Shown here piece by piece: positions 21,987 through 51,640 of a stretch of 64,000 nucleotides of DNA. The stretch comes from Ignavibacteriales bacterium. Its GTDB lineage: Bacteria > Bacteroidota > Ignavibacteria > Ignavibacteriales > Ignavibacteriaceae. The DNA lies in the NCBI GenBank assembly GCA_012517155.1, contig JAAYVN010000041.1:10556-74555 (forward strand). The letters are read 5' to 3'. A program made the position numbers and the translations under genes. Each line of letters begins with the position of its first letter. The first letter of the stretch is position 1. The notes below the pieces were generated by a model. That model saw only the letters and a program-made list of their open reading frames with translations. It was not told the origin of the DNA and searched no databases.

Positions 21987-22021
21987 GAAAGAATGTGCTA
22001 CAAGCTGCGCCGGCATTAAGT

Positions 22022-22048: not shown

Positions 22049-22076
22049 CGGAAGAAGACAGGAAAAGGGTTGATTT

Positions 22077-22094
22077 GTTCCCGCAAGCGGGAAC
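22077..22094. repeat. GC-rich palindrome GTTCCCGC-AA-GCGGGAAC, a member of the dispersed repeat family
   Basis: Perfect 8-nt arms. With its left flank gggttgatttgtt it is near-identical to 30589-30616. Confidence 0.75.
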
Positions 22095-22205
22095 AGAAAT
22101 CCCTTCACTATTTACTGTTCACTCCTTTTATTTTACCGCGGGGCAGTTGGAAAATAGCTTTGTATGTAGTAATTTTTGGTATATGTTTATTCAGTTAATT
22201 TCGTA

Positions 22206-24278
22206 ATGAAGCTATTTCAAAATCCGTTTGTAAAAATTAACAAAATCGCCCGAATAATCAATCTCCCGGATTACACCAAATTCCTGATTATTTCAGTGTT
22301 TATAGGGGGGGCGGTAGGATTTGCGGCGGTTATTTTTCACCGGTCAATAGAATTTTTCAACCGTTTATTCTTTGAGCAGACAGCCGGGGGACTATATTTC
22401 CTCGGAGCTGCGGCAGTGATCACCATTCCGGCAATCGGTATGCTGATACAGGCGCTAATGATACGGCTATTCCCGGAGATTTCGAAGCACCGTGGAGTGC
22501 CGGAGATCATAAAGACCGTCTCAGTCCAGGGGGGAAGAATTCCGCTTAGGACCACCATATTCCATTTCCTTGCACCGGTTATATGTATCGGATCGGGGGG
22601 AACGGTTGGACCTGAGGGACCCGCTGCGCAGCTGGGGGGGGGAGTAGCAAATAAACTAAGCAGTGTAATCGGCATGGGGGATCAGCGGCGCAGGATATTC
22701 ACTGCGGCGGGGGCAGGGGCGGCAATAGCAGCTATTTTCAACTCCCCGCTCGGAGGAATTTTCTTCGCGCTCGAAATTATAATGCTGAACAATTTTCAAT
22801 CCACCACCTTTTCCGCACTCATACTATCCTCCGTAACCGCAAGTTCAATATCGCGCATCTTCATACGGAACACCTCCGTCTTTGAATTTGGCATACCGGA
22901 CGTTGGTGGGTACCGTTATCTCCATTTATTCGCAATCATGGGGGTAGCAATCGGACTTATTTCCCTGATGTTCATTAGATACTCCCTCTTTTCGGATAAG
23001 ATCATAAAAAAGAAATTATTAGGGCGCGTGCCACAGTGGGCGCTTATGGTGATAGTGGGACTGATAGTCGGAACCACGGGATTCTTCTACAAGGATATAC
23101 TCGGAATTGGTTACGAAGGAATAAACAACATACTAGCCGGCAGGAACAGTCTGCAGATAGTTGCGGTGCTGCTGGTAATGAAATTCATACTTGTCCCGCT
23201 GATACTCAACTCCGGGGGATTCGGAGGTATGTTCGCCCCGGCATTATTCATGGGGGCTTGTTCGGGCTTTTTATTTTCCCAGTTTCTCATACATGTATGG
23301 GGTATACAGGTGGATCCGACCACATTCATCCTTGTGGGTATGGGGGCAATGCTGGGAGGAATCAATTCAATCCCGATCTCAGCGATACTGATAATATTCG
23401 AAATGACGCGGGACTACTCCTTCATCCTGCCGCTTATGCTGGCGGTGGTAATCAGCACTATGATAATCCAGATATCCTACAAAGGCTCTATTCACACGCA
23501 TCATTTGAGGCAGCAGGGGTACAGGCTGAACAACTCGGAAGATCATGCAATACTTAACCGGATTAAAATATCCGAGGTCATGAAACCGCGTATCATGCTG
23601 ATTGACTGCAGCACTCCCCTGCCTATGTTGCTCACAGAAATGGTAAACAGCCAGGCGGATACTTTTTACCTGAAAAACAATCAGGGAAGGATCAACGGAG
23701 TTATCACCTCACAGATGCTGAGACCTATACTAACCGAGTTCAACCAGTTGAAGGATGTGCTTATTGCGGAAGATCTCGCTTCGAAGGATATTGTGTTAGT
23801 TACCGGGGATGACACGCTCGATTCGGTGATGAAATTGTTTGAGAAGAAAGATTACGATGAATTCCCTGTGATTGCAGGGGTAGAGGAGCCCGGCTCTGCT
23901 CAACGCGTTTTGGGAGTTATCAGGCGTAAGGATGTAATAGCCGCATACAACAAGGAGCGGATAAAGCTAAATCTGGCGGACAGCTTTGCAACCGAATTGA
24001 AAACCATCGAAAAGGAAGAGAGATCCAAAGTTGCAGACGGATACTCGATAATGGTGATCAATCCGCCGGCAGAATTTTTAGGGAGTACACTGGCGGAGTT
24101 GAACATACGCAACCGGTTCGGGCTGGAGGTACTGATGATAAAGAAGCCGGTTGATCCTTATTCAGATGAGTTGGAAAAGATCATACAGCCTGCGGGGGAT
24201 TACGTAGTTAGCGAGGGGGACAACCTGTATATATTCGGGAAAGACGAGAACCTGAAAGCGGTAACAAGGGAACAGTAA
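22206..24278 (+). CDS. ClC-family chloride channel/antiporter with cytoplasmic CBS pair and TrkA-C (RCK_C) domain
   Basis: GSGGTVGPEGPAAQLG and GGFGGMFAPALFMG selectivity motifs. C-terminal CBS-like and RCK_C-like segments. The ORF opens at 22176; the ATG at 22206 is preferred. Confidence 0.88.
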   Translation: MKLFQNPFVKINKIARIINLPDYTKFLIISVFIGGAVGFAAVIFHRSIEFFNRLFFEQTAGGLYFLGAAAVITIPAIGMLIQALMIRLFPEISKHRGVPEIIKTVSVQGGRIPLRTTIFHFLAPVICIGSGGTVGPEGPAAQLGGGVANKLSSVIGMGDQRRRIFTAAGAGAAIAAIFNSPLGGIFFALEIIMLNNFQSTTFSALILSSVTASSISRIFIRNTSVFEFGIPDVGGYRYLHLFAIMGVAIGLISLMFIRYSLFSDKIIKKKLLGRVPQWALMVIVGLIVGTTGFFYKDILGIGYEGINNILAGRNSLQIVAVLLVMKFILVPLILNSGGFGGMFAPALFMGACSGFLFSQFLIHVWGIQVDPTTFILVGMGAMLGGINSIPISAILIIFEMTRDYSFILPLMLAVVISTMIIQISYKGSIHTHHLRQQGYRLNNSEDHAILNRIKISEVMKPRIMLIDCSTPLPMLLTEMVNSQADTFYLKNNQGRINGVITSQMLRPILTEFNQLKDVLIAEDLASKDIVLVTGDDTLDSVMKLFEKKDYDEFPVIAGVEEPGSAQRVLGVIRRKDVIAAYNKERIKLNLADSFATELKTIEKEERSKVADGYSIMVINPPAEFLGSTLAELNIRNRFGLEVLMIKKPVDPYSDELEKIIQPAGDYVVSEGDNLYIFGKDENLKAVTREQ

Positions 24279-24385
24279 AGGGTTATTTGTCGATTTGTTG
24301 ATTTGTTAAAGTGACAAAAAAGTCGAAGGTCGGAAAAAAGATCAAAAGATTAAAAGATAATCCGCCTGCGGCGGAGGATGAATTT

Positions 24386-24409
24386 CCCTCCCGAAAACTT
24401 TCGGGAGGG
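24386..24409. terminator. Perfect 11-bp-arm hairpin between convergent genes (probable bidirectional terminator)
   Basis: ccctcccgaaa-ac-tttcgggaggg. A second hairpin tccgcc-tgc-ggcgga lies at 24361-24375. Confidence 0.6.
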
Positions 24410-24445
24410 ATTGAAAAGGGGGTTTTAAATTTTTTGGGTTATGAT

Positions 24446-25558
24446 TTATTTAACCAGCAACAACTTCTTTATGCTTCTGAAATCTCCTGCCCGTAATTCG
24501 CAGAAATATACCCCGCTCGGCAATGCGGTCGCTTTGAATTCCAGACTGTGATAACCTGCCGCATTCATCTCCCCATTGATAAGCGTGGATACTTTTTCTC
24601 CCGTAATGTTGAATACTTCAAGCGTCACTCTCGCTTCAACCGGCAACTGATAGCTGATAACCGTTGAAGGATTGAAGGGATTCGAGTAGTTCTGCTTCAG
24701 TCCAAATGCAAGCGGCTGCAGTTCCTCGTCTTCTACTGAACTTATTGGAAGTACTATCTCCCTGATTCTCCCGGGAATGGCAAATGATCCGTATCCAAGC
24801 AGCGTGAGGTCAATTCTGTTAGCCGGAGTTTCTCTTCTTATTTCCCACTCGTTCAGGGCGAACCATACATAGGTCACTTCCGTGAAAATGGGTATTACCA
24901 GCGGCGGGAATGGCGGCGGAAATATCTGGGTTGTATAGGATATTGTTATGTTTTCCTGGAATTTTTTGCAGTCGAAGGCGCCATAATCGGTGAATATTAT
25001 TTCGTCGTTCAGCCGCTTCTCTTTAAGATCAAATCTGAGCGGAATTGTGTTGTTGTTGATTGTTACGGTGGTATCGAACTGGAATATCAGGTATTCCTGG
25101 TTGACGGTTCTTTGAAAGTCGTACATGCCGTACCAGTTTTCAAACCGCTTCAGCAGGGAGTAGAATTCAAGTAATGTAGCAATGTACTGCCCATATCCGG
25201 TGGTATCAAATTGTCCGATCAGCGCTTCAATCGAGGGGACTCTGAAAAAGACGCTACCTACAGAACCGTTCAGATTTACGTAGTTTGTGTCCGTGTAGGG
25301 TTGCATCTGAATGGTCTGAAGCAAGCCGGTTTTTGAAAGTATGTGTTTTGCGTTAAGACCATGGTACACTCCTTCGGCAGCAAGGGAGTCCATTGAGTAA
25401 GTGATCAGGCTGTCCACGGGGTTATCCAGGGTATCCAGGGGTATCTGCTTAAAGGTCCATACTTTCCCGAGCGCCGGGGGAAAATAATTTGATGCCTGGG
25501 CAAATAATCCCGACACAAGAAACAGGGAGATTACTATAATGGAAACAGACTTTTGCAT
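24446..25558 (-). CDS. Secreted protein with a T9SS type-A C-terminal sorting domain
   Basis: Signal peptide. The C-terminal ~80 aa NYSNPFNPSTVISYQLP...VTLEVFNITGEKV...SGVYFCELRAGDF...KKLLLVK matches the Por_Secre_tail pattern. Confidence 0.85.
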   Translation of the reverse strand: MQKSVSIIVISLFLVSGLFAQASNYFPPALGKVWTFKQIPLDTLDNPVDSLITYSMDSLAAEGVYHGLNAKHILSKTGLLQTIQMQPYTDTNYVNLNGSVGSVFFRVPSIEALIGQFDTTGYGQYIATLLEFYSLLKRFENWYGMYDFQRTVNQEYLIFQFDTTVTINNNTIPLRFDLKEKRLNDEIIFTDYGAFDCKKFQENITISYTTQIFPPPFPPLVIPIFTEVTYVWFALNEWEIRRETPANRIDLTLLGYGSFAIPGRIREIVLPISSVEDEELQPLAFGLKQNYSNPFNPSTVISYQLPVEARVTLEVFNITGEKVSTLINGEMNAAGYHSLEFKATALPSGVYFCELRAGDFRSIKKLLLVK

Positions 25559-25576
25559 TTGACTTTTCCTTTCCGG

Positions 25577-25996
25577 TTAATTAGTTCGTCTTATACTAAC
25601 AATTAAATTAGCGGAAAATTGGTTCATTCTACACGATACAAATTTTATCCTGCTAATCCCTTCATAAAAAAATTGTATGCGGAAGTTATCACTCCCCTTC
25701 TTTTCGACAATAGCAGTCCCATCCTCGGAGATCATCACAATATCCACTTCCCCGCCCCGGTAATTCTCCACTCCGATATCTATCAGGCTTGCAGTGGAGA
25801 GTAATCTGAGGCTGTCCAGATAAGTTACGGTAAATTCCTCCGCTTCGATTTTGAAGTTGTAATAATTCCTGTAATTATCCCGCACCGCAAGGTTTTTAAC
25901 GCCTATCAGTGTCCCCGGAGAGATGACTTCCTCCCTGCAGGATATAAAGCAAAAAGTAATAACGGGTATCAGAAGTGCTTTGAGTATTTTATCCAT
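25577..25996 (-). CDS. Hypothetical lipoprotein
   Basis: The ATG at 25996 gives MDKILKALLIPVITFCFISC (lipobox-like). It lies 18 nt upstream of the T9SS cargo gene. Confidence 0.55.
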   Translation of the reverse strand: MDKILKALLIPVITFCFISCREEVISPGTLIGVKNLAVRDNYRNYYNFKIEAEEFTVTYLDSLRLLSTASLIDIGVENYRGGEVDIVMISEDGTAIVEKKGSDNFRIQFFYEGISRIKFVSCRMNQFSANLIVSIRRTN

Positions 25997-26177
25997 GCCG
26001 AATTTCTCAGGTCTGCCAAGTTTGATTTTTATAAACACATTTTTACAACGACTGCTTTACAAAAATATAAATTTACCGGAGAATATAATAACCAAAAATT
26101 ATTAGCGAAAATTGAAAAAGGGGGAAGAGATATAAATTTTTTGTATATTACCGTATAAGAAAAATATTAATAATAAT

Positions 26178-26684
26178 ATGAAAATAGCAACTTATCCGGG
26201 AACATTTGATCCCGTAACAAACGGACATATAGACATCATTCGCCGGGGGATGGAGATATTCGACAGGATAATCGTAACCGTAGCCAGGAACACAACCAAA
26301 ACCACTCTTTTTTCACCCGCTGAACGGCTTGATCTGCTGAGGAAAAGTCTTTCGGGAATGACCAACGTTGAGGTGGTTTCTTTTGCAGGGCTGGTTGTGG
26401 AGCATGCGAAATCGGTAGGTGCGGTGGCTGTTTTAAGGGGGCTTAGAGCGGTGAGTGATTTTGAATACGAGTTTCAGATGGCTTTGATGAACCGCAAACT
26501 TGCACCCGAAATCAATACCGTTTTCCTTATGCCCAACGAGAAATATACTTACCTGAATTCTTCCATTATCAGAAGTCTTAGTGAGTTTGATGCCGATATA
26601 AATGACTTTGTACCAAAGGTGGTTGCTGATGCACTCAAGAAAAAAATAATGAAAAAACAAGCTACAATGAAAGGGAAGAAATGA
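26178..26684 (+). CDS. coaD: Phosphopantetheine adenylyltransferase
   Basis: YPGTFDPVTNGHIDII, RGLRAVSDFEYE. Confidence 0.93.
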   Translation: MKIATYPGTFDPVTNGHIDIIRRGMEIFDRIIVTVARNTTKTTLFSPAERLDLLRKSLSGMTNVEVVSFAGLVVEHAKSVGAVAVLRGLRAVSDFEYEFQMALMNRKLAPEINTVFLMPNEKYTYLNSSIIRSLSEFDADINDFVPKVVADALKKKIMKKQATMKGKK

Positions 26685-27871
26685 AAGAACTTTCGCACCT
26701 GGTTTCAACTGTTGAGGAAAGCAGAACACTTGCTATTACGGCTTTGATTAAAAAACTTAAAAGCGAGGGGAAAAAAGTACTCAGTTTCAGTGCGGGGGAG
26801 CCGGATTTCAATACTCCCGCTTTTATTAAAGAGGCAGGGATTGAGGCAATAAACAATAACTACACCCGCTATACAGCCAGCGAGGGATCGCCGGAACTGA
26901 TCAGGGCGGTAATAAGCAAATTCAAAAATGACAACGGGCTTGACTTTGCTCCGGAAAATATTCTGATATCGAACGGGGCAAAACATTCAATTTATAACGT
27001 GATTCTCTCCGTGTGCAACCCGGGGGATGAGGTTATTATCCAGTCCCCTTACTGGGTTAGTTATCCGGAAATAATTAAACTTGCCGGGGCTAAATGCGTA
27101 CTGATTGACGCCGGTCCGAAGGCGCATTATAAAATTACCCCTTTGCAGCTTGAGCGGGCTATTACCCCGAAGACCAAGGCGTTCATTTTCAACTCCCCCT
27201 CCAATCCAACCGGAGCGGTATATTCAAAGGAGGAGATTTATGCATTAGCCGAAGTTCTGAAGGACAAGGGAATTTATGTAATAAGCGATGAGATTTATGA
27301 AAAGATACTCTTCGACGGAAGAACTCACTTCCCGATGGCAACCATTCCGTGGATGCACAACTATGTAATTACAGTTAACGGAGTGAGCAAAGCATTTGCA
27401 ATGACCGGCTGGCGTATCGGTTTTGCGGCAGGTCCGAAGGAAATTATACGTCTGGCAAGGAATCTGCAGAGCCATTCAACTTCCAATCCTAATTCCATAG
27501 CCCAGGCTGCCTCGGTTGCAGCGCTTACTAAGGAAGTTGCCGAACTGCCGGAGATGGTCGCGGAATTCCGGAAGCGAAGGGATTTTATAGTCGGTGAACT
27601 TAACAAAATAAACGGAATATTCTGCCCGCCGATAGACGGCGCATTTTATGCTTTCTTTGATGTTAGCTGCTTCTATGGAAAACAATGGAAGAATACGCTG
27701 ATAAACGACTCGGGAACATTTTGCGGATTCCTGCTGGAAGAGGCACAAATAGGGCTGGTACCCGGTATTGCATTTGGGAATGACAATTGCGTAAGGATGT
27801 CCTTCGCCTGCTCCATGGAGGATTTGCGGAAAGGTGTTACGATTCTGAGGGAATCCTTAGATTCGCTTTAA
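26681..27871 (+). CDS. PLP-dependent aminotransferase, class I (aspartate aminotransferase-like)
   Basis: GEPDFNTP, SNPTGAVY, NGVSKAFAMTGWRIGF (PLP lysine). Confidence 0.88.
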   Translation: MKELSHLVSTVEESRTLAITALIKKLKSEGKKVLSFSAGEPDFNTPAFIKEAGIEAINNNYTRYTASEGSPELIRAVISKFKNDNGLDFAPENILISNGAKHSIYNVILSVCNPGDEVIIQSPYWVSYPEIIKLAGAKCVLIDAGPKAHYKITPLQLERAITPKTKAFIFNSPSNPTGAVYSKEEIYALAEVLKDKGIYVISDEIYEKILFDGRTHFPMATIPWMHNYVITVNGVSKAFAMTGWRIGFAAGPKEIIRLARNLQSHSTSNPNSIAQAASVAALTKEVAELPEMVAEFRKRRDFIVGELNKINGIFCPPIDGAFYAFFDVSCFYGKQWKNTLINDSGTFCGFLLEEAQIGLVPGIAFGNDNCVRMSFACSMEDLRKGVTILRESLDSL

Positions 27872-28738
27872 CTCGATTTCCCTCGCAAGGAACTTTGTTA
27901 TCTCGTCAACCGGCATTTCATGGTTCGTCCAGAGCTGGAATGACTTTGCCGCCTGATAAACGAGCATTTTCAATCCGTTGATGCAGATTGCCCCTTCTTG
28001 CTGCGCCTGCTTCAGCAGCAGGGTTTTCGAAGGATTGTATATAAGGTCAAACACAATCTGGTTTTTGGTGAAGGAAGCTGGTATCGGGATAACCGTATCG
28101 TCAATCTCCGGATACATCCCCACCGGTGTGGCATTAACAATCAAGGCTGACTCGTTTATAACCGTGGCTATATCGGGGGGGAACAACTCGTAAGTCAGAA
28201 AGTGGTCGAATTTCATCTTCTGTTTGAAATATCTTTTGAGTGTGTGTGCCCGCTGCTCTGTACGGTTGACAATAACTATCTTAGATGGTCTGAAATGCCT
28301 TATCAGGCAGTAAATGGCAGCACGTGCGGCTCCGCCTGCGCCGATTATTGTTACCATTTCCCCCGAGATTTTGTCGCTGTAAGGAAGTAATGTTTCGTGA
28401 AAGCCGTGAACGTCCGTGTTATAGCCAATCAGTTTACCCATATCGTTTACGACCGTATTAACCGAGCCTATCATGGCTGCCTCATCTGAGAAATCGGCAA
28501 GATGATTAAGTATGGTTTCCTTGTGCGGGATAGTCACGTTCAATCCCTTTATTCCAAGCGCCAGCACCCCTTTGATTGCATCGGGGAGAGCGGTTGTCCC
28601 CACATTAAAGGGGAGATAGACGTAATCCAGGTCCAGCAGTTCTATTGCCTTGTTATGGACCATCGGAGAAAAAGTCTGTTTTAGCGGATGACCGAATATC
28701 CCGAGCAACTTCGTTTCAGAATAATTTATTTTAATCAT
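27857..28738 (-). CDS. aroE: Shikimate dehydrogenase
   Basis: GHPLKQTFSPMVHN, GLNVTIPHK, GYNTD, IIGAGGAARA. Confidence 0.9.
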   Translation of the reverse strand: MIKINYSETKLLGIFGHPLKQTFSPMVHNKAIELLDLDYVYLPFNVGTTALPDAIKGVLALGIKGLNVTIPHKETILNHLADFSDEAAMIGSVNTVVNDMGKLIGYNTDVHGFHETLLPYSDKISGEMVTIIGAGGAARAAIYCLIRHFRPSKIVIVNRTEQRAHTLKRYFKQKMKFDHFLTYELFPPDIATVINESALIVNATPVGMYPEIDDTVIPIPASFTKNQIVFDLIYNPSKTLLLKQAQQEGAICINGLKMLVYQAAKSFQLWTNHEMPVDEITKFLAREIELKRI

Positions 28739-30203
28739 TTTTTCTCCATTTATTACGATTAAAAATTGAGGTATCCGTGCTAAGACTTAAAAACAAATCC
28801 GAAATTGCCACCGAGGGGAGGAGGTTCGAAAATCTTTCATATACTTTATTGTCCAGTTCCATAGCTTTCAGGAGGAACAGCAGGGCAGATTTGGGACACC
28901 CCATCAGATAGTAAATTTGTGATATCTGCTGCAGGATTCCGGGATCTTTTTTTCTTATGCGGTACAAGCGTTTCAGGATGTCCAGCGCCTTCCGGTACTG
29001 AAATGTCCTCCGGTAAACCGCAACCATTCCGGTTAGTTCCTTCCTGCCCAGCACTACCCGCTTTTCAAATTCTCTGATTTTAAGCAGGTCGGTTTCGTCG
29101 AGTACCGGCGATGGTTCCTCGAGCCAGACTTCATCGTTGTAGTTATTCTTTTTTATTGCTTCTCCGAGATCCTTTATAGCCCGGTTGAATAGTCCGAGCT
29201 TGTAATAGCACATGCCCCGGTCAAGATAAGGCTCATCGGCGGATGGATTCAGTGCAAGTGATTTGTCGAGATATTTCAGCGCATGGCGGTACTTTCCCAA
29301 AGCCAGGTTTGCAGCACCAAGCATGAACCAGGTGACGTCATCATCCTTATCCAGCCTGATTGCCTTCTTGAAGTAAACCATACTTTTGTCGTACCTCTGG
29401 AGATTGAAGAGGAGTCTGCCCAGATTATAGAGGGCGTCGTCGAACCGGCTATCGAGGGAGATCGCCATTTCATAACTGTCAATTGCTTTTTCGTACTGTT
29501 TCATCTTCTCCAGCACAATAGCCCGGTTATACCAGGCATTCTCGTCATCCGGCTCCAGGCAGAGATAGGAATCGTACATATCCAGTGCAAGGTTCAGATT
29601 GCCGAGGTTTTCATGACAAGCTGCCAGATGGAACTGTGCATCCTCGTGTTCCGGATTGTATTCAAGCGCCTTTTCAAAATAGTAAACAGATTCCTCATCC
29701 AGTCCCTTTTTCTGGAGTATTAGTCCGAACCGGAAATATGCGGCATCCTTCATCCCATCGAGCTTTAAGGATTTCTGGAAAGTCACTTTCGCCTCCTCCA
29801 GTTTTCCCAGGAATACTTCCGAGGCAGCTTTTTCCATTAGCACCTCCGCATCGGCAGGACTGATTGAAAGGGATTTATTGAAGCACTTAAGTGCCTTCTC
29901 CTGTTCGCCAAAACTGGCATGACAAATTCCTTTCATTGCCCAAAGTTCTGAGTCAAAAGGGGTTATCTTAAGAAGTGCGGTTATTATCGAGTATGCATCA
30001 CGAAAGCGAAAAAGTTCGAAACAATCCTCAAGGACATCCTCCAGAAGATTTTGATTTAGAAGTACCTGTCCCTGACTGATAATTTCTTTACATTCTTTTA
30101 TTTTCTCTTTTATATTCCCGCTTCTGCCGGTTGTTTCCTCGTCATAATAACTGTCGGAATCGAATAATGACATTTTGCTCCATTTTTTAGAATCATCATT
30201 CAA
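28731..30203 (-). CDS. TPR-repeat protein
   Basis: More than 8 consecutive 34-aa TPR-like repeats (A...Y.KAL.L.P....A). Confidence 0.75.
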   Translation of the reverse strand: MNDDSKKWSKMSLFDSDSYYDEETTGRSGNIKEKIKECKEIISQGQVLLNQNLLEDVLEDCFELFRFRDAYSIITALLKITPFDSELWAMKGICHASFGEQEKALKCFNKSLSISPADAEVLMEKAASEVFLGKLEEAKVTFQKSLKLDGMKDAAYFRFGLILQKKGLDEESVYYFEKALEYNPEHEDAQFHLAACHENLGNLNLALDMYDSYLCLEPDDENAWYNRAIVLEKMKQYEKAIDSYEMAISLDSRFDDALYNLGRLLFNLQRYDKSMVYFKKAIRLDKDDDVTWFMLGAANLALGKYRHALKYLDKSLALNPSADEPYLDRGMCYYKLGLFNRAIKDLGEAIKKNNYNDEVWLEEPSPVLDETDLLKIREFEKRVVLGRKELTGMVAVYRRTFQYRKALDILKRLYRIRKKDPGILQQISQIYYLMGCPKSALLFLLKAMELDNKVYERFSNLLPSVAISDLFLSLSTDTSIFNRNKWRKND

Positions 30204-30261
30204 AATTTATCTAAAAAAGGTAACAAAATCAAGATAATAAATACTCCGGATGGAACTGGAC

Positions 30262-30720
30262 AAAAGGTTAAAAGATAAAGAGATAAAGAGATAAAAAGGT
30301 AAAAAGATTTAAAGTTAAATGGGGATTTTTGTTGATTTGTTGATATGTTGAGGTAGCTGCGCTGTCAGTAATGGTCATTAGGTGGTCATTTGGCTTCGCC
30401 GTCATTAGGTTGTAAGAGGAATAGAACTCGGATGAAGCGGATTATCCGGCTCCGCAGGGTGTTGCACAGAAAAATATCACTAAAAACAATTGTTCTTCTA
30501 TGCGTGATATTGCGGAAAACTTTACGTTACTTTGCGTTTAAGGGATATCAATCGCCGAAGAGTTAAAGTTTAGGGGTAAGAGGGAAAGAGGGATTTTTGT
30601 TCCCGCAGGCGGGACAGGTGATGTGTCGATATGTTAAGGTGATTAACCCCCCTTCAGTTAATCCGCAGCAGCGGAGGGGAATATATATCCCCCTCCGTTG
30701 GCTAACGGCTTACGCTAACA
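30262..30720. repeat. Mosaic of short repeats and GC-rich hairpins in a 523-nt non-coding gap
   Basis: A/G-rich (a)aagataaagag iterations at 30262-30319. ggggatttttgttgatttgttgatatgtt at 30321-30350. Three copies of gtcatt(a/t)gg at 30373-30409. gggatttttgttcccgcaggcgggaca at 30589-30616. Hairpins at 30662-30675 and 30673-30696. Palindrome ccgttggctaacgg at 30695-30708. Confidence 0.75.
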
Positions 30721-30726
30721 CTAAAA

Positions 30727-31890
30727 TTACTTTTTCAGAACCCGGGTAACCAGTTTAGCGGCATCCTCAAAGGTTCGCGCAACTTCAAAGTGCAGCGACG
30801 ACTGCTCCAGAAGTACTCCCGCTTCCCTGGCATTCGTTCCCTCCAGCCTTACAACAATAGGTACTTTTATCTCCATCTCCGAGGCGGCATCGATCACCCC
30901 CTGGGCAACCCGGTCGCACCGGACAATCCCACCAAATATGTTGATAAGTATTGCCTTTACATTCGGGTCCGAAAGAATTATCTTAAATCCGTTGGAAACC
31001 GTCTCCTTGTTGGCTCCGCCTCCTACATCAAGAAAATTGGCAGGTTCCCCGCCGGCGAGCTTGATAATATCCATCGTTGCCATGGCAAGTCCGGCACCAT
31101 TGACCATGCACCCAACATTTCCATCCAGTTTGATATAATTCAGATTGAATTTGGATGCCTCGATTTCGAGCGGATCTTCCTCATCGAGATCGCGGTAGGA
31201 AAGTATCTCCGGGTGTCTGAATAAAGCATTATCATCGAAATTCATTTTTGCATCAAGCGCAAGAACTTCCCCCTCTCTGGTTACAACCAGTGGATTGATT
31301 TCAGCAAGTGAAGCATCGGAAGCCTCGTAAGCCTTGTAAAGCGCAAGGAGGAATTTCACCGCATTCTTGTGCTGCTCGCCGTTTAGTCCGAGTGCGAAGG
31401 CAAGTTTGCGTGCCTGGAACTGCTGCATTCCGACAGCCGGATCAATGGCTTCCTTAATTATCTTTTCAGGGGTTTCAGCCGCAACCTTTTCTATTTCCAT
31501 TCCCCCCTCGGTGGATACCATAACCACATTCTGTGAGCTTGCCCTGTCCAGAGTAATTCCGACGTAAAGTTCTTTCCCGATATTAATTCCCTGCTCAATC
31601 AGCAAACGCTTAACAACTCTCCCCTCCGGGCCGGTTTGATGTGTAACCAGGTTCATTCCGAGGATCTGTTTTGACAGGGACTCCACTTCCGCCATGCTTT
31701 TTGCCACTTTGACACCTCCCCCTTTTCCCCTCCCCCCCGCATGGATTTGCGCCTTGACAACCCATACTGAACCCTGAAGCGTCTTGGCGGCATCCAGCGC
31801 CTCTTTAACAGTGAATGCCACGTAACCTTTAGGTGTGGGAACGTTGTATTTTCTCAGTATTTCTTTTGCCTGATACTCATGGATTTTCAT
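30727..31890 (-). CDS. sucC: Succinate--CoA ligase (ADP-forming) beta subunit
   Basis: [15 protein letters not shown]..., [30 protein letters not shown]. Confidence 0.95.
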
Positions 31891-31923
31891 AGATTTTCCT
31901 TAAAATATTTATCTGATTAGCAA

Positions 31924-33477
31924 TTATACTTTTTCACTCATCAATTTTGCCTGCATGAAGAGACCCAGATAATCCCTTCCGCCGGCTTTGGAATCCGTGC
32001 CCGACATATTAAACCCGCCAAAGGGATGAACACCCACCAGCGCTCCGGTGCATTTCCTGTTAAAATAGAGATTCCCGATAAGCAGTTCCTTCCTTGCCTT
32101 GTTTAATTTCTCCCGGTTGTTGGTATAAACTGCTCCGGTAAGTCCGAACTTCGTATTGTTGGCGATTTTCAGTGCGTCATTAAAGTCCTTTGCCTTGATC
32201 ACTGCCAGCACAGGACCGAAAATCTCTTCCTGGGAAATCCTTGCCATCGGATCAATATCGGCGAAAACAGTCGGTTGAATATAAAAACCGTTTCCTTCAG
32301 CCTTGGAACCGCCGTTAAGGAGTTTCCCTTCCTTTTTGCCAATCGAAATATATGCAAGTATTGATTTCTCGGCAGAAGCACTGGAAACCGGACCTACGGG
32401 GAAGTTCTCATCTGCCGGACCGATTTTCAATGTATCCACTCTGGCTTTTAATTTCTTAACAAATTCATTGTAAATTTTTCTGTCCACAATTACTCTGGAA
32501 CAGGCGGAGCATTTCTGTCCCTGATAACCGAACGCTGCGGCAACCACTCCCGCAACTGCAGTATCGATATCCGTTTCGGAATCCACAACAATACTGTCCT
32601 TGCCCCCCATTTCGGCGATAACTCGCTTAAGCCAGATCTGTCCTGGTTGTACTTTTGCAGCCAGTTCATTGATATGAATGCCCACTTCCATTGAACCGGT
32701 GAAGGAGATATATCGGGTTTTGGGATGAGCCACCAGGGTATCCCCAACCTCGCCGCCGGAACCCGGGAGGAAGTTAAGCACACCGTTTGGCAGTCCGGCT
32801 TCCTTCATGATATCCACAAAGAGTTTTCCCATCATGGGGGTTTCGCTCGATGGTTTCAAAACTACCGTGTTTCCTGAGACTATGGATGCGGAGCTCATGC
32901 CGGCAAGTATTGCGAACGGGAAATTCCATGGTGGAATAACCACGCCAACACCAAGGGGAATATATACCAGTTCATTTTTCTCCCCTTTTGTTTTAATCAG
33001 CGGCTGCTTTGCGGAGTATCTTAAAATTTCGCGCGCATAAAACTCAAGGAAGTCTATTGCCTCTGCGGTATCGGCATCCGCCTCGGTATAATTCTTTCCT
33101 GCTTCCAAGATCATATATGCGTTTATTTCAAATCTTCTTTTCTTCATTATCGCAGCCCCCTTAAGGAGATAACCGGCTCTCTCTTCGGGTGAAGTATATC
33201 GCCACGTCTGGAAGGTCTTGTATGCTGACTCAACTGCTAAATAGGCAAGTTCCTTTGTCCCTTTGCAGAAGTTTGCTATTACCTGGCTGACATCAGATGG
33301 ATTTATCGACGAAAAAGTTTTTTCGGTTTTTATTTTCTTTCCGTTTATTATTATTTCGTAGGTTGCGCCAAGTTTCTTCTTAACTGCATCAAGGGCGGCT
33401 TTCTGTATTTTAACATTACTCTCTTTGGAAAAGTCTGTTATCGGTTCATTTCTGAAAGGTCTGATTTTCATATCCAT
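31924..33477 (-). CDS. pruA: L-glutamate gamma-semialdehyde (1-pyrroline-5-carboxylate) dehydrogenase
   Basis: Aldehyde dehydrogenase core (AEMGGKD, GYQGQKCSACSR) with the PruA-type N-terminus FRNEPITDFS. Confidence 0.88.
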   Translation of the reverse strand: MDMKIRPFRNEPITDFSKESNVKIQKAALDAVKKKLGATYEIIINGKKIKTEKTFSSINPSDVSQVIANFCKGTKELAYLAVESAYKTFQTWRYTSPEERAGYLLKGAAIMKKRRFEINAYMILEAGKNYTEADADTAEAIDFLEFYAREILRYSAKQPLIKTKGEKNELVYIPLGVGVVIPPWNFPFAILAGMSSASIVSGNTVVLKPSSETPMMGKLFVDIMKEAGLPNGVLNFLPGSGGEVGDTLVAHPKTRYISFTGSMEVGIHINELAAKVQPGQIWLKRVIAEMGGKDSIVVDSETDIDTAVAGVVAAAFGYQGQKCSACSRVIVDRKIYNEFVKKLKARVDTLKIGPADENFPVGPVSSASAEKSILAYISIGKKEGKLLNGGSKAEGNGFYIQPTVFADIDPMARISQEEIFGPVLAVIKAKDFNDALKIANNTKFGLTGAVYTNNREKLNKARKELLIGNLYFNRKCTGALVGVHPFGGFNMSGTDSKAGGRDYLGLFMQAKLMSEKV

Positions 33478-33606
33478 ACTCCTATTATTTGATAAAAACT
33501 AATATGCAAAATAAGAAACAAATCAGATTAAAGAAAATAAGAAATATGGATAAAGTGCCGGGGAGGTTGTGAACTTTTTACCCCGTTTACGCATTGATAT
33601 TTTAAC

Positions 33607-34425
33607 ATGAAAAATAAATTAATAATAATAGCGTTGATAATTATGGTATTTACGAACTTTCTGCACCCGCAAAAGCAGGAGAAAGTAGAAATAACCGCAC
33701 GGCTTTTTCCACTAGGAAATTTTATAGCCCTGAAACTGGAAATAGCACCGGAGTGGCATATCTACTGGGAAAATCCGGGAGACACGGGGATAAAAACCTC
33801 ATTTAGCTGGGAACTGCCGGATGGGTGGGAATTGAGTGAACCCGAATTTCAATATCCCTCGAAATTCGAAAGTGATGGTTTGGTCAGTTACGGCTACGAG
33901 AAAGAAGTGCTTTATCTTTTCCGCCTTAAAATTCCTGACGGAAAAGTATTAAAGGAAACCCTGGAAATTAAAGTAACTACGGACTGGCTTGCCTGCAAGG
34001 AGATCTGTGTTCCTGGGGAAAGTAAAGCAGTTTTGGAAGTAACTCCGGAAATCCGCCAACTTCTGAAAAAAGAAAATTCTTTTGACCCGGTGAATGAGAA
34101 ATTTCCGCAAAACGGAGACAACATCGGAATGACCGGGCTTGTTTTGGAGAACAGCATTATAATCGGGATTGAACGCAAACAGCTTCCTGATACGGACTAC
34201 TCTAAAATAGAATTCTTCCCTATGGAACAGGGTGTTTTCAGCACCATTGTCCCTCCCCGGATTTCAGTGGACGATAATAAAATAATAATGGAATTAGCCC
34301 TCGACCCGATGCATACAAAGATACCGGACACTATTAATGCACTCTTTTACAATGAGACCGGCTGGGGCACCTCCGGCAATCACAAAGCAATTAAAAAATC
34401 AATTAAATTAACCAATCAGGAGTAA
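33607..34425 (+). CDS. DsbD-N-terminal-like (thiol:disulfide interchange, DsbC/DsbD alpha-domain family) exported protein
   Basis: Signal peptide. HIYWENPGDTGIKTSFSWELPDGW and DWLACKEICVPG are typical of this domain. Confidence 0.75.
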   Translation: MKNKLIIIALIIMVFTNFLHPQKQEKVEITARLFPLGNFIALKLEIAPEWHIYWENPGDTGIKTSFSWELPDGWELSEPEFQYPSKFESDGLVSYGYEKEVLYLFRLKIPDGKVLKETLEIKVTTDWLACKEICVPGESKAVLEVTPEIRQLLKKENSFDPVNEKFPQNGDNIGMTGLVLENSIIIGIERKQLPDTDYSKIEFFPMEQGVFSTIVPPRISVDDNKIIMELALDPMHTKIPDTINALFYNETGWGTSGNHKAIKKSIKLTNQE

Positions 34426-45242: not shown

Positions 45243-46238
45243 CTATTTAATCCATCCTTGTTCTTTGTACCATCTCACAGTTCTTTCGATACCAGCGGCA
45301 ACCGGGATCTTCTGGGAGTATCCCAAGTCCTTCATCGCCTTTTGAGTTGAACAGGTCCAATATTGTTGAGTAAGGTCCTTCGCTTTTTCAATATTGAGTG
45401 TTGCCGCTTTACTTGAAAACATCGCAAAGAACTGGGCAATTGCGGCTATAGTGAACACAATAAAATGAGGGACTTTGACCTGTAAAGGTTTCTTATTCAT
45501 CACTTTGGAAGTGACCTCTCCGATTTCCTCCCACGTGTAAAGCTTCTCGGAGGATATGAAATATGTCTGGTTTTGAGCAACAGGACTCAAAGCAGCCAGA
45601 AGAAATCCGTTCACAAGATCAACCACGTGAATAAGACTTATGAGTTTCCTGTTGAAGCCGATTGTTGTCATTAATCCCGACGCAAACGTTTTAAAGAAAA
45701 TGAAAATCTCCGTATCCCTCTCTCCATATACAGCAGGAGCACGGCATATTGTTACCGGTAATCTGTCCATAAATGACTGAGCGACTTTTTCTTCCTCCAC
45801 TTTACTTCTTGCATAAGTAGTGATGGGATTACAAGGAATAGTTTCGTCGAGAGGGATTTCCGTTGGCGAGGGACCTGCAGCTGTTTGACTGCTGACAATC
45901 AGGATCCTCTTAATAGTTTCAGGAAACTCAAGCGCAACTTCAAGAATTGTCCGGGTTGTTTCCACATTCCCTTTAAAGTAGTCAGCAGGATCTTTAGCCT
46001 TTACCACTCCGGCGACGTGATATATATAACGAGCATCAGTAAACGCCTTACGAAGCCCCTCCTTGTCAAACAGACCGGTATTAAAAATTTCTACGGGTTT
46101 ATCTTTTAACCACTTAAGATTACTTGATTTACGCACCAGGCAACGAACTGTGTAACCCTTTTCTAAAAGCAGATCCACGAGGTGACTGCCTACGAATCCA
46201 TTCCCCCCGGTTACTACTGCAATTTCTTTTTTTTCCAT
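45243..46238 (-). CDS. Extended SDR, NAD-dependent epimerase/dehydratase-family reductase
   Basis: VTGGNGFVGSHL Rossmann motif, YARSK catalytic YxxxK. Confidence 0.85.
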   Translation of the reverse strand: MEKKEIAVVTGGNGFVGSHLVDLLLEKGYTVRCLVRKSSNLKWLKDKPVEIFNTGLFDKEGLRKAFTDARYIYHVAGVVKAKDPADYFKGNVETTRTILEVALEFPETIKRILIVSSQTAAGPSPTEIPLDETIPCNPITTYARSKVEEEKVAQSFMDRLPVTICRAPAVYGERDTEIFIFFKTFASGLMTTIGFNRKLISLIHVVDLVNGFLLAALSPVAQNQTYFISSEKLYTWEEIGEVTSKVMNKKPLQVKVPHFIVFTIAAIAQFFAMFSSKAATLNIEKAKDLTQQYWTCSTQKAMKDLGYSQKIPVAAGIERTVRWYKEQGWIK

Positions 46239-46407
46239 AATTTATTTGTTTTTAACTGCATTTATTATAATTTTAAATAATAGATTTTTTTCTTTTTAAC
46301 TTGTAAATTTAGTGTAAAATAAAGCCAAAAACAAGGAAGTTAGGGGCTTTGTTGAAGAGATTTAATCATTGTACAGTGTTTTTATAAAATTTTCCGGAGG
46401 AAGTTAA

Positions 46408-47598
46408 TTGGATATATTTGCAAAGTGTTTTGAATTTACCCGTGCAGACGATATTAAAGCATCAGGACTCTACCCTTATTTCAGGGCTATAGAGGAAAAT
46501 GAAGGTCCCGTAGTCCAGATTGAGGGACGAAAGATAGTAATGGCGGGATCAAATAACTATTTAGGACTTACTGCCCACCCAAAAGTTAAAGAAGCGGCAA
46601 TAAAAGCAGTTGAAAAATATGGTACAGGTTGCTCCGGTTCGAGATATTTAACAGGAACGCTTGACCTGCATATCGAATTGGAAGCACGTCTTGCTAAGTT
46701 TTTCGGAACAGAATCAGTGCTTTTATTCAGTACAGGCTACCAGACTGCGCAGGGAATCATCCCTACTTTGGTCAACCGTGGAGATTACCTGATTTCCGAC
46801 AAAGATAACCACGCCTGCATAGTTGCCGGTTATTTAATGGCTAAAGGAGCCACTGCAGAGATCGTTCGCTATAAACACAATGATATGAACGACTTAGAGA
46901 GAGTTATCTCCAAACTTCCTGAATCCGCTGGCAAACTGATTGTTAGCGATGGAGTGTTTTCCACAGGTGGTGAAATAGTGAATCTTCCCAAAATGAACGA
47001 GATTGCCAAGAAATATGGAGCAAGATTATTGATAGACGACGCTCACTCAGTAGGGGTAATTGGTAAGGGAGGAAGAGGCACAGCTAGCGAGTTTAATCTC
47101 GAGAGTGAGATAGATATGACTATGGGTACCTTCAGCAAAACATTTGCAAGTTTAGGCGGATTCGTTGCGGGTTCTGAAAGGGTATTAAATTATCTGAAAC
47201 ACCATTCCCCTGCTTTGATATTCAGCGCATCCCCTACTCCGGCATCTGCTGCATCTGCCTTGGCTGCACTGGAGATTCTTGAGCAGGAACCGGAAAGAGT
47301 TACAAGATTGATTCAAAATGCGGATAGGGTTAGACAAGGTTTGAAGAGTCTGGGATTCAATGTAGTAGAGAGCAGAACAGCAATTGTTCCTGTGATCGTT
47401 GGAAGCGATGAACTGGCTTTTATGATGTGGCGCAAATTGTACGATAATGGTGTCTTCGTCAACGCCTTTATTTCTCCCGGTGTACCTCCCGGACGACAGA
47501 TGATGAGAACAAGCTATATGTCCGCCCATGAGAATGAACATCTTGACTTTATTGTAGAAACTTTTAAGAAAGTTGGAAAAGAACTGGGATTAATATAA
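46408..47598 (+). CDS. Alpha-oxoamine synthase family PLP enzyme, serine palmitoyltransferase-like (KBL/BioF family not excluded)
   Basis: TTG start with GGAGG 6 nt upstream. YPYFRAIE..., [35 protein letters not shown] (PLP lysine). Confidence 0.8.
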
Positions 47599-47600
47599 TT

Positions 47601-48725
47601 ATGAGCAAAATAGAAATCCGTAGAGTTGAATCAGGTAAGGACCTTGATGCTTTTATAAAATACCCATGGGAAATTTATAAAGATAACAATTATTGGGTGC
47701 CCCCGTTAATTTCGGAAAAGAAAAAAATACTCAATAAAAAGAAAAATCCCTTTTTTGAACATGCTGAAGCTGAGTATTTCCTGGCATATAAAGACGGAAA
47801 ACTTTCCGGAACTATTGCCGCTGTAAAGAACGACCTGCATAATGAGTATCATAAAGATAAAACGGGTTTCTTCGGATTTTTCGAGTGTATTAATGACCAA
47901 AAAGTTGCAAACAGTCTTTTCGATGCCGCGAAGAAGTGGTTAAAGGAGAAGGGCCTGGATGAGATGAGAGGACCTGCTAATCCTTCGAGCAACGATGAGT
48001 ATGGTATGCTAATAGAAGGATTTGACGATTCACCAAGAATACTAATGCCTTATAATCCCCCTTATTATCTCTCGTTATGCGAAAATTACGGTCTCGAAAA
48101 AGCCAAAGACCTTTATGCCTATAAGCTAGAGAACCACAAGTTGATGAGTTCCGAGAAACTACGGAGAGGCCAACAGTTGGTGAGAGACAGATACAAACTG
48201 AAAATCAGTTCACTTAACATAAAGGACTTTAAGAATGAACTGGATAAAGTAAAATTTGTCTATAATAAAGCATGGGCACCAAACTGGGGTTTTGTTCCGA
48301 TGACTGAGGCTGAAATAGACGCGATGGCAAAAGATCTTAAGCCGATTGTTGAACCTAATTTAGTCCTATTTGGAGAGATTGACAACAAGTTGGTGGGCTT
48401 CGCTTTAGTTATGCCAGATTATAATGAGATCTTCAAAACCATGAATGGAAAGCTTTTCCCATTCGGATTTTTAAAATTGATTTTCCACAAGAAAAAATTT
48501 ACCTGGGGCCGGATTATAACCCTTGGAATTATTCCGGAATTTCAAAAGAGAGGTCTTGATTCGGTATTTTACTGGGAAATATTAAACCGAGCTGATCAAT
48601 ATTGCGGAATCAGGATTGGCGAAGCAAGCTGGATTCTGGAAGATAACGAGATGATGAACAGAGGCGCAGAACTTATGAATGGTGAGTTATATAAAAAGTA
48701 CAGAATCTACTCGAAACCAATATAA
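47601..48725 (+). CDS. GNAT-fold-like acyltransferase family protein of unknown specificity
   Basis: 374-aa ORF starting 3 nt after the previous stop. IKYPWEIYKDNNYWVPPL..., GFFGFFEC, MRGPANPSSNDEYGMLIEGF, IIPEFQKRGLD (GNAT motif-A-like). Confidence 0.6.
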   Translation: MSKIEIRRVESGKDLDAFIKYPWEIYKDNNYWVPPLISEKKKILNKKKNPFFEHAEAEYFLAYKDGKLSGTIAAVKNDLHNEYHKDKTGFFGFFECINDQKVANSLFDAAKKWLKEKGLDEMRGPANPSSNDEYGMLIEGFDDSPRILMPYNPPYYLSLCENYGLEKAKDLYAYKLENHKLMSSEKLRRGQQLVRDRYKLKISSLNIKDFKNELDKVKFVYNKAWAPNWGFVPMTEAEIDAMAKDLKPIVEPNLVLFGEIDNKLVGFALVMPDYNEIFKTMNGKLFPFGFLKLIFHKKKFTWGRIITLGIIPEFQKRGLDSVFYWEILNRADQYCGIRIGEASWILEDNEMMNRGAELMNGELYKKYRIYSKPI

Positions 48726-48746
48726 AAGTCAGAATAAACAATTAAC

Positions 48747-48776
48747 AAGGTTGTCCATAAGGACAACCTTTTTTAT
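48747..48776 (+). terminator. Rho-independent terminator
   Basis: aaggttgtcc-ataa-ggacaacctt followed by a T-run. Confidence 0.75.
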
Positions 48777-48802
48777 TTTCAAATTAATATAAATTTAAAA
48801 TA

Positions 48803-49546
48803 ATGGAATACTGTAAGGATTATTTTATTCATTATTATCAGGTTGACCGGAACAGGGATCTGACAATAGTCAGCCTGATAAGGATATTAGAGGATATAGC
48901 TATCCTGCAAAGCGAGGAAGTGGGCTATGGACTTGACTATTATGAACGGGAAAAAGTAGGATGGATGCTTAGCAGATGGGAAATAAAAATAAATCAGCTG
49001 CCAAAATTCAAGGAGAAGATAAAATTAACCACCCGTCCCCAAGCAATGAACAGGTTTTACGCCAATAGGTATTATTGGTTATATAACGAGGAAGGGGATT
49101 TATTAGTGGAAGCTGCAAGTCTTTGGATCTTTTTCAATATCGAAAAAAGAAGGCCTCAGGCAGTTAGCCGGGAAATAATTGATGCTTATGCTGGGACGGA
49201 CAGAAATGAGTATCCCTTTACTCGACTTGATGAGGTGGAAGAAGTACCAAGTTATGATTATTCCAAAAAGTTCGAAGTAAGTACGGATGCGATTGATGTA
49301 AATAATCATGTGAATAATTCGCGCTACTTTAGCTGGGCTCTGAGCGTAGTAAAAAAGGAAATAATCACGAATTATAAGATTTCCGAGATTCGCGTAAATT
49401 ACCTCAAGGAAACAAATATCAATGACAAAGTTATGAGTTTTTACCACTCAAAAGCCGAGGGAGATGGAATAAGTACACTGCATAGTATGAAGAATGAAAT
49501 GCATGAGGTTTGCAGGATGAAAATTCACTGGACCAGAAAACAATAA
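48803..49546 (+). CDS. Acyl-ACP thioesterase (FatA/FatB-like double hotdog)
   Basis: YYQVDRNRDLTIVSLIRILEDIAILQSEEVG...VGWMLSRWEIKI, plus a second hotdog half with DVNNHVNN. Confidence 0.8.
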   Translation: MEYCKDYFIHYYQVDRNRDLTIVSLIRILEDIAILQSEEVGYGLDYYEREKVGWMLSRWEIKINQLPKFKEKIKLTTRPQAMNRFYANRYYWLYNEEGDLLVEAASLWIFFNIEKRRPQAVSREIIDAYAGTDRNEYPFTRLDEVEEVPSYDYSKKFEVSTDAIDVNNHVNNSRYFSWALSVVKKEIITNYKISEIRVNYLKETNINDKVMSFYHSKAEGDGISTLHSMKNEMHEVCRMKIHWTRKQ

Positions 49547-49597: not shown

Positions 49598-51640
49598 TTA
49601 CTTCATTAGAACAAATTTCTTTGTAGCCGAGTATTTTTCCGATTGCAGGCTATAAATATAAACTCCTGAAGTCAGACCAGTTGCATCGAACGTAACTGAG
49701 TATCTTCCGGGTTGTTTATATTCTTTAACCAGAGTTTTCACTTCCTTGCCCAGGATATCATATACCACCAAAGTAATTTCCATTGCTTCCGGAATAGCAT
49801 AGCTGATCGTAGTGGAAGGATTGAATGGATTAGGATAATTCTGGTTAAGAGCAAAGACCATAGGTACGTCAGTAATGCCAGTTTCAACATTCAGAATGCC
49901 ACCAAGGGCGAAGATTGTAGATCTGAGGGCTTCCATCGTATATTTGGTATTGTGCATTCCGCGGCTCTTATCATAAGCAAATACTCTATAGTTGAAATAA
50001 GCCTTATTTATTGTAGGATTATTCAAATCTCTGACCGCCTGCCAGGAAACCGAGTCAACACCAACCGGAGGCAAATACCATTTTAATTTATGGTACAAGT
50101 TATCATACTCAGTTTGGATTGCTTCAAGAAGTCCGTTTCCATCCCAATCAACAGTAGCTACGAAATCGGTGAAATGTGTTTTATTTCCGTGACAAGGCTG
50201 GCATTTAGCGGTAAGGTCTTGTCCATTATTTGAGAGTGAGAATGTATGCCCACCAACTTTATTATAGTTAGGACTGGTTGAATCTGGTGAAGCCTGCATA
50301 TGACAGTCAACACAACTGTTGGTTAAGAAGAGGCTGTGTGCAGTGCTGTTGTATGGTGTTCCGAATTCAGCTGCATTTTGTCCGAGATAAATATCAGTTT
50401 GGTTTGAATAGTGAGGACCCCAGTTCGCATTAGTAACCTGAGTCGTTGCAAAGTTTTTACCGTCTCTGCGAAGTTTGTGACAGTTCATACAAACCTGCCC
50501 ATGACCGCCAACTGAATATTGATAACCATTAGCAAGAGTATCCGAGCCTGCAGGGGTAGTTCTAATTTCATTACTATGAGGATCGTGACAAGTTGGGCAA
50601 CCTATATGAGTCTGATTACCCTGAACCCATCCAGTGGTGTTAGTCGTTTTACCTTTAGTGAAGTTAATGAAGCCTTGTCCGTCATGGCAGCGGATGCAAT
50701 TCTGAAGGTTATTGTTCTGGCTTGCAGTTCCCTGTGCAAAAGAACCTGACCATACCGGTGCACTATGGAGTGAGTTTTCCCACTGAGCACCAATATTATA
50801 GTAGCCAACCTGATCATGACACTGTGCGCAAGTACCGGAGTTTCCGGAGATTCCAATTGCCTCAAATGAACCGGAGGTGTGTTCACCGCCGGGACCGTGG
50901 CAGCTTTCGCAACCTATATTTGCCAGCTGGGAGAGCTTTGGAAATCCAGTCTTGAGTGAATCCCATTTGCCGGGATTAAGCGGAAGAACGAAAGTCCAGC
51001 CAAGCTCGGAAGCTACATCATCAAAACCACCGTTTGCAGCAACGTTATCGTGATCAGAACCGGTAGTATGACATTTGAAACATGACTGGTTGTAATAGCC
51101 AGTTCCAGTAATGCTTCTTTTGAATTTCAGGGCATGACCGGTATTTTTCCATTCATTAAAAATGTCCACGAATTTCTGGGTGAATCCATGACAACTCATA
51201 CAGTTAGGATATTCAGCAGGAACGCCATCAAAATTTCCAACGCCGACATATTTTCCTGCGAAAACCGTGATTGTAGTATCGTCTGTCCCACCAGAAGTAG
51301 TAATGGAAAGATTAATCTCATACTTTCCTTTCACATCGCTCTTGAAATAAACTGAATTATCCGTACCGAAATTTGTAAAGCTGGCATTTGAGCCGGCGGG
51401 TTTTGTCGTAAAAGTAAAGACTGCAGCGGTGACAGGCTGAGTATTTGCGATATTACGGGGTGTTAAATACATGTAGGTCTCAAGCGGGAACACTTTAAGA
51501 CCGGAAGAGACCGAACCGGTAGTTAAACCGAGGTCTTTTAGTTTTTGCGGGCTAATCGCTTTTACTTCAATGCTAGCCCTCTGCGGCATGATAATCATCG
51601 ATGCCAGAATAAAAATCAAGAAAAAGTACTTACGTTTCAT
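49598..51640 (-). CDS. Nine-heme c-type cytochrome with a T9SS C-terminal sorting domain
   Basis: Signal peptide. Nine CxxCH motifs (CMSCH, CFKCH, CESCH, CAQCH, CIRCH, CPTCH, CMNCH, CVDCH, CQPCH). C-terminus NYPNPFNPSTTISYAIP...ITLVVYDILGKEV...SGVYIYSL...KKFVLMK. Confidence 0.9.
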   Translation of the reverse strand: MKRKYFFLIFILASMIIMPQRASIEVKAISPQKLKDLGLTTGSVSSGLKVFPLETYMYLTPRNIANTQPVTAAVFTFTTKPAGSNASFTNFGTDNSVYFKSDVKGKYEINLSITTSGGTDDTTITVFAGKYVGVGNFDGVPAEYPNCMSCHGFTQKFVDIFNEWKNTGHALKFKRSITGTGYYNQSCFKCHTTGSDHDNVAANGGFDDVASELGWTFVLPLNPGKWDSLKTGFPKLSQLANIGCESCHGPGGEHTSGSFEAIGISGNSGTCAQCHDQVGYYNIGAQWENSLHSAPVWSGSFAQGTASQNNNLQNCIRCHDGQGFINFTKGKTTNTTGWVQGNQTHIGCPTCHDPHSNEIRTTPAGSDTLANGYQYSVGGHGQVCMNCHKLRRDGKNFATTQVTNANWGPHYSNQTDIYLGQNAAEFGTPYNSTAHSLFLTNSCVDCHMQASPDSTSPNYNKVGGHTFSLSNNGQDLTAKCQPCHGNKTHFTDFVATVDWDGNGLLEAIQTEYDNLYHKLKWYLPPVGVDSVSWQAVRDLNNPTINKAYFNYRVFAYDKSRGMHNTKYTMEALRSTIFALGGILNVETGITDVPMVFALNQNYPNPFNPSTTISYAIPEAMEITLVVYDILGKEVKTLVKEYKQPGRYSVTFDATGLTSGVYIYSLQSEKYSATKKFVLMK

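Follow-up and report, generated by a model that had tools for sequence, protein, structure and literature searches.

Three neighbouring Ignavibacteria genes that probably direct ceramide synthesis

We describe here a gene trio in a 64,000-nucleotide stretch of DNA, hereafter the window, from an Ignavibacteriales bacterium (assembly GCA_012517155.1, contig JAAYVN010000041.1, positions 10,556 to 74,555). We put the probability at about 0.8 that these genes encode the core enzymes of the bacterial ceramide pathway. The trio encodes a serine palmitoyltransferase (Spt)-like alpha-oxoamine synthase (AOS; 46408-47598, forward strand, 396 aa), a predicted tandem-GNAT N-acyltransferase of the bacterial ceramide synthase (bCerS)/YghO family (47601-48725, forward strand, 374 aa) and a divergently transcribed extended short-chain dehydrogenase/reductase (SDR) of CerR type (45243-46238, reverse strand, 331 aa). 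Judged by these sequences, a sphingolipid is very probably among the products of the organism. In the pathway that we propose, the Spt-like pyridoxal phosphate (PLP) enzyme would join a long-chain acyl thioester and an amino acid, L-serine being the likeliest, to form a 3-keto long-chain base, which the presumably co-transcribed bCerS/YghO-type enzyme would N-acylate to an oxidised ceramide; the SDR would then reduce the 3-keto group to yield dihydroceramide. The trio is an already known kind of gene set and reveals no new pathway. An earlier note on this DNA had described four genes here, among them the AOS gene with the 374-aa gene beginning 3 nt further on and the SDR gene diverging across 169 nt, and had seen one member each of the Spt, GNAT-type bCerS and CerR families. 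Open reading frame listing and translation confirm all four genes at those coordinates, and the three family assignments are borne out by a phylogenetic tree, by homology to YghO and by a reciprocal best match, respectively. The organism is Melioribacteraceae-like, and its assembly has 3.29 Mb and is 99.65% complete. LpxC is present in this genome, and a sphingolipid that replaces lipid A was therefore rejected; a ceramide-type lipid would be made in addition to lipid A.

Identity of the three enzymes

The AOS carries a Pfam Aminotran_1_2 domain (2.3e-54) with the PLP lysine K244 and with H135, D210 and H213. Its top NCBIfam model is SerpalmtaseCFB, the Bacteroidota-type Spt, with 491 bits versus 370 bits for Kbl and 368 bits for BioF, both of which lie under the respective family cut-offs (460 and 426 bits). 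The best match in the PDB is the serine palmitoyltransferase of Sphingobacterium multivorum (SmSPT) with 390 bits, ahead of a Thermus Kbl/BioF enzyme (288), the Sphingomonas SPT (266), Kbl (247) and two cysteate acyltransferases (232 and 201). Identity in the alignment is 45.5% to SmSPT and 37% to the Spt of E. coli. The active-site and substrate-contact residues of SmSPT (Asn52, Gly80, Ser81, His138, Ser185, Asp210, Ala212, His213, Thr241, Ser243, Lys244 and Met271; PMC10196870) are identical in 11 of 12 positions, the exception being Met271, which contacts the substrate via its main chain (PMC10196870) and is replaced by Ile271. Also conserved are the Gly-Ser pair and Asn49, which are serine contacts in SmSPT; at the place of this pair cysteate enzymes have Gly-Ala (PMC13692747). 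In a maximum-likelihood tree, the clade of the AOS groups with the Spt of E. coli and with six Spt sequences that score above threshold (support 99/99), while Kbl forms a separate clade (100/99). The E. coli B enzyme has been validated biochemically and yields 3-oxosphinganine (PMC9386255). The earlier note had proposed to place the AOS against Spt, Kbl and BioF, and it joins the validated Spt enzymes, apart from Kbl and BioF. Cysteate acyltransferases (CFAT) were judged by bit scores, and the tree took in none of their sequences.

The 374-aa protein is a full-length homologue of E. coli YghO with 35-36% identity (36% over 376 aa) and E values of 3e-76 to 2e-77. The gene yghO (ECD_02850) has been given together with CC_1154 of Caulobacter as the N-acyltransferase required for dihydroceramide (PMC9386255), and it is through this published orthologue that the earlier suggestion of a relation to bCerS held up. 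Our comparisons for bCerS as well as for CerR were made through the E. coli orthologues and not with Caulobacter or B. fragilis sequences. General searches return little: Pfam gives only a weak GNAT match at residues 251-337, no NCBIfam model matches and a PDB sequence search yielded chance matches only. An AlphaFold (AF2) model built from 108 homologues reaches a pLDDT of 97 and its fold matches the tandem-GNAT enzymes 2WPW, 5KF1, 7Q3A and MshD. The second GNAT domain has an intact acyl-CoA motif, and the protein carries the motifs NWGF (228-231), FQKRG (314-318) and SWILEDN (343-349). Homology and predicted fold support a bCerS-family N-acyltransferase, with the activity itself being predicted. 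The closest homologues bear the names Rosettibacter, Melioribacter and Ignavibacteriaceae, and in the named Ignavibacteria matches "hypothetical" or "GNAT" is the only annotation of this gene, which thus receives a putative function here.

In E. coli strain R10, yghO lies beside aasR, an epimerase-family gene (cerR), acpR, an annotated spt and lptF/G paralogues. In E. coli K-12 (MG1655), an IS5 element abuts yghO and the aasR-cerR-acpR-spt-lptG-lptF block seen in R10 is missing, which makes K-12 a null background provided by nature for tests by expression. Further bCerS-type genes were seen among the sampled genomes. A second paralogue of about 32% identity occurs in many Ignavibacteria (for example G037:C6:64082-65191 and G031:C33:92388-93494), the genome of the window having one copy, and in genome G099 a bCerS-type copy of similar divergence adjoins an above-threshold Spt. 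A 6-Mb genome of the phylum encodes a bCerS-type gene 53-54% identical to that of the window (G199:C1:5181018-5182106); its best AOS is at Kbl level (8.9e-109 on the Spt model), leaving a ceramide synthase homologue with no obvious Spt.

The SDR (Pfam Epimerase, 1.5e-33; GGNGFVG at 11-17, YARSK at 142-146) shares 24% identity over 311 aa with the CerR orthologue of E. coli (E 5e-30). With E. coli CerR as query in the genome of the window, the SDR is found first (2e-25, next-best 4e-12), and with the SDR as query in the E. coli chromosome, the CerR orthologue is found first (9.8e-21, next-best 1.5e-6). The two proteins are thus reciprocal best matches, in line with the CerR-like role that the earlier note had considered for the SDR; the E. 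coli gene, ECD_02852, is listed with CC_1164 (CerR) (PMC9386255). Two other identities of the SDR were rejected. Its top NCBIfam match is the hopanoid protein HpnA, at 145 bits against a cut-off of 368 bits, and the genome has no squalene-hopene cyclase. A pair of an SDR-type threonine dehydrogenase with Kbl was dismissed, as the SDR has no similarity to that dehydrogenase in the PDB and the Kbl clade is separate.

Conservation, gene fusions and the order of the steps

The divergent arrangement of the SDR gene with the AOS-GNAT pair is found in 11 of 11 order-level relatives, in which the AOS is about 80% and the GNAT protein about 71% identical, and it is more than chance. A second family of the class shows the same order. 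Four of five loci from a further lineage of the phylum have the SDR gene at a distance of no more than 3-4 kb, and in some lineages the AOS, GNAT and SDR genes are unlinked. The family of the 374-aa protein itself is present in all 41 relatives and in 289 of the 301 sampled genomes of the phylum. An above-threshold Spt followed contiguously by GNAT and SDR homologues is found in four Bacteroidia-like genomes (G299, G291, G259 and G099). The Spt-like clade to which the AOS belongs occurs widely among the sampled Ignavibacteria and also in several further lineages of the phylum outside Bacteroidia, with scores of 480-520 bits on the Spt model, for which the cut-off is 640 bits.

Fusions between the first two enzymes occur in relatives. 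A search of a representative library returned a 780-aa protein (P0151) with an AOS domain at residues 57-396 and a bCerS-type domain at 417-778. In a scan of the class, 13 genomes of several families had the Spt-like AOS within an open frame of 784-869 aa, and in one of these the fusion (G086:C12:18171-20549) was confirmed by tblastn. Such fusions suggest that the keto base is handed directly to the acyltransferase. Acylation before reduction is the order that we favour, because the AOS and bCerS are tightly coupled and are fused in relatives.

Several points weigh against the assignment to ceramide synthesis. The AOS stays below all three curated Spt cut-offs (491 of 640 bits for CFB, 374 of 500 for beta and 305 of 670 for alpha), and in the tree its clade is distinct (support 90/83) and stands beside the validated Spt enzymes, not inside them. 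First-shell residues do not determine the amino-acid specificity in this superfamily (PMC13692747), and for this reason the use of L-serine, which the active site makes likely, is unproven. The identity between the SDR and the CerR orthologue is only 24%. The CerR of Caulobacter is reported to be periplasmic (PMC11087976); the N-terminus of the SDR shows no signal-like hydrophobic stretch, the Rossmann motif starting at residue 11, and that of the E. coli CerR orthologue is similar. By tblastn no dedicated AcpR or AasR partner was found in the window, and weak acyl carrier protein (ACP) matches and generic acyl-AMP ligases lie on other contigs. Finally, our literature search turned up no lipid analysis of any isolate of the Ignavibacteria.

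We find it hardly credible that the AOS serves housekeeping metabolism as a Kbl or BioF and that its neighbours are unrelated. It is the sole AOS in a genome of 99.65% completeness, and about 80% identity across an order resembles the conservation of a housekeeping enzyme. Against this stands that BioB (biotin synthase), Kbl and Tdh (the MDR-type threonine dehydrogenase) were not found in the whole genome (G000), that the SDR is unlike SDR-type threonine dehydrogenases in the PDB and that relatives fuse the AOS to a bCerS-type protein. Moreover, Kbl forms its own clade, and in 45 of 61 class genomes a true Kbl (510-676 bits) exists alongside the Spt-like AOS (340-394 bits on the Kbl model). 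As an observation apart, the missing biotin synthase makes biotin auxotrophy probable for this organism. A more serious alternative keeps the same three enzymes and changes the product: with glycine, alanine or cysteate as substrate of the AOS, a 1-deoxy- or nor-ceramide-like or a sulfonolipid-like lipid would result. The position of the AOS clade under every curated Spt threshold and separate from the validated Spt clades would fit this, as would the fact that specificity cannot be read from the first-shell residues (PMC13692747), and anoxic waters are rich in 1-deoxyceramides and sulfono-ceramides, for which Bacteroidota are regarded as one of the sources (PMC11334938). We nevertheless consider it improbable, since SPT scores 390 bits and the known cysteate enzymes reach 232 and 201, the Gly-Ser pair and the Asn49 contact to serine are kept, and serine palmitoyltransferases accept alanine and glycine inefficiently (PMC10196870). 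Among the ceramide-like, sulfonolipid-like or other N-acyl amino-alcohol lipids that the earlier note had offered, the ceramide-type core has stood and a sulfonolipid is disfavoured, with cysteate acyltransferases scoring far below Spt. A related idea, somewhat less remote but still unlikely in our view, is that the Spt-like clade is a distinct long-chain-base synthase that hands its product directly to bCerS and might favour another amino acid over serine. If this were true, the AOS-bCerS fusions of 780-869 aa in related families would be independent genomic support for the disputed order of acylation before reduction.

The order of the steps is the other matter on which readings diverge. In a eukaryote-like sequence, the SDR would reduce the 3-keto base to sphinganine, which the GNAT enzyme would then acylate. 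Reduction as the earlier step has been proposed by one group for Caulobacter (PMC11324152) and reported for B. thetaiotaomicron-type species (bioRxiv 10.1101/2023.05.23.541633), and the SDR has no signal peptide, so that all three enzymes could be cytoplasmic. However, the AOS and GNAT genes are translationally close and are fused in many relatives, and the SDR gene is a separate divergent unit, an organization that fits a direct hand-over of the keto base; in addition, oxidised ceramide builds up in Caulobacter and in B. fragilis when cerR is deleted (PMC11087976; 10.1101/2023.05.23.541633). Reduction before acylation appears unlikely, and the serine-based route in which acylation comes first is the one that we prefer.

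Locus layout and the neighbouring thioesterase

The AOS gene starts with TTG and has a GGAGG ribosome-binding site 7 nt upstream. Between its stop codon and the ATG of the 374-aa gene there is a spacer of 2 nt, the start lying 3 nt past the last base of the stop codon. The AT-rich divergent region of 169 nt between the SDR and AOS genes (46239-46407) presumably contains the promoters of both transcription units; sigma-70-like matches in it are weak, and none is above the expectation from shuffled sequence. The AOS-bCerS unit ends in an intrinsic-terminator-like element on the forward strand (48747-48775), the hairpin of which (48747-48770) has 10 bp with five G-C pairs and a loop of four and is followed by a T run (TTTTATTTTC). 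The earlier note had placed such a hairpin between the 374-aa gene and the gene downstream of it, and it was found there.

That downstream gene (48803-49546, forward strand, 247 aa) encodes an acyl-ACP thioesterase with both Pfam Acyl-ACP_TE domains, N-terminal and C-terminal, and with PDB matches to 2own and 4gak, a genuine FatA/FatB-type enzyme. The earlier note had counted it as a fourth cluster member, and it could be imagined to free fatty acids of set chain length for the Spt or the bCerS step, given its true FatA/FatB-type nature and its position 78 nt downstream of the 374-aa gene on the same strand. The distribution of its homologues speaks otherwise. None lies downstream of the trio in any of the 11 order-level loci, and a homologue is found in 20 of the 41 relatives, with at most 38% identity, compared with 41 of 41 for bCerS. 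It never stands beside the trio in these genomes, but on another contig in all relatives except one, in which it is 35 kb away. As the terminator-like hairpin stands between the 374-aa gene and the thioesterase gene, and as homologues of the latter never adjoin the trio, we rejected the thioesterase as a module member. The cluster also has no acyl-activating enzyme that would re-activate a free acid. A working fourth member is thus very unlikely, and the thioesterase is probably a separate, non-conserved neighbour.

Two further observations concern the wider window. Beyond the thioesterase, the reverse strand (49598-51640) encodes a multihaem c-type cytochrome of 680 aa. It combines an MtrC/MtrF-like domain with a C-terminal sorting domain of the type IX secretion system and is a candidate for a surface-exposed protein of electron transfer. 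The G+C content is 0.36-0.40 in positions 1-14000 and 0.42-0.47 in positions 14000-34000, which may mark the boundary of a compositional island.

Comparison with known ceramide and sulfonolipid systems

A genomic potential for such a pathway has already been described for Ignavibacteria. PMC10667739 states a genetic potential for ceramide synthesis in 'Ignavibacter', citing Stankeviciute 2022, and a correlation of monoglycosyl ceramides with Ignavibacteria sequence variants. Spt-like proteins have been extended to 38 phyla (PMC11334938). Our analysis supports ceramide-type lipids as a standard membrane component across the class and its sister classes and helps to trace environmental ceramides to their sources, and the AOS-bCerS fusions in relatives bear on the open dispute over how the steps of the bacterial pathway are ordered.

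Among the nearest known sets are those of Caulobacter crescentus and E. coli B, with spt (CC_1162/ECD_02854), cerS (bCerS; CC_1154/yghO ECD_02850) and cerR (CC_1164/ECD_02852). As in these organisms, all three enzyme families are present in the window and their genes are clustered. Differences are that the cluster of the window has neither a dedicated AcpR/AasR nor LptF2/G2 paralogues, that its Spt belongs to the Bacteroidota-type lineage and that the SDR gene is divergent and not part of an spt operon. Also near are the Spt-bCerS-CerR sets of Bacteroidota, represented by B. fragilis (BF9343_4218/4240) and by the SPT of Sphingobacterium multivorum (PDB 3A2B/8GUH). They come from the same phylum, the AOS shares the 45.5% identity and the conserved active site with SmSPT, and homologous GNAT and SDR genes follow an above-threshold Spt in four sampled genomes. 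In contrast to these sets, the AOS of the window falls into a sister clade (480-520 bits against the cut-off of 640), and the gene order is the SDR gene diverging from AOS-GNAT, not Spt-GNAT-SDR. In Bacteroides, the three ceramide genes have been reported to be unlinked (PMC11334938). The CFAT/SulA/CapB sulfonolipid pathway likewise begins, in the same phylum, with an SPT-like PLP enzyme that starts an N-acylated long-chain-base lipid. The AOS departs from CFAT in its scores, with 390 bits for SPT and 232 and 201 for the CFAT structures, and in having Ser78 where COCFAT has Ala82 (PMC13692747).

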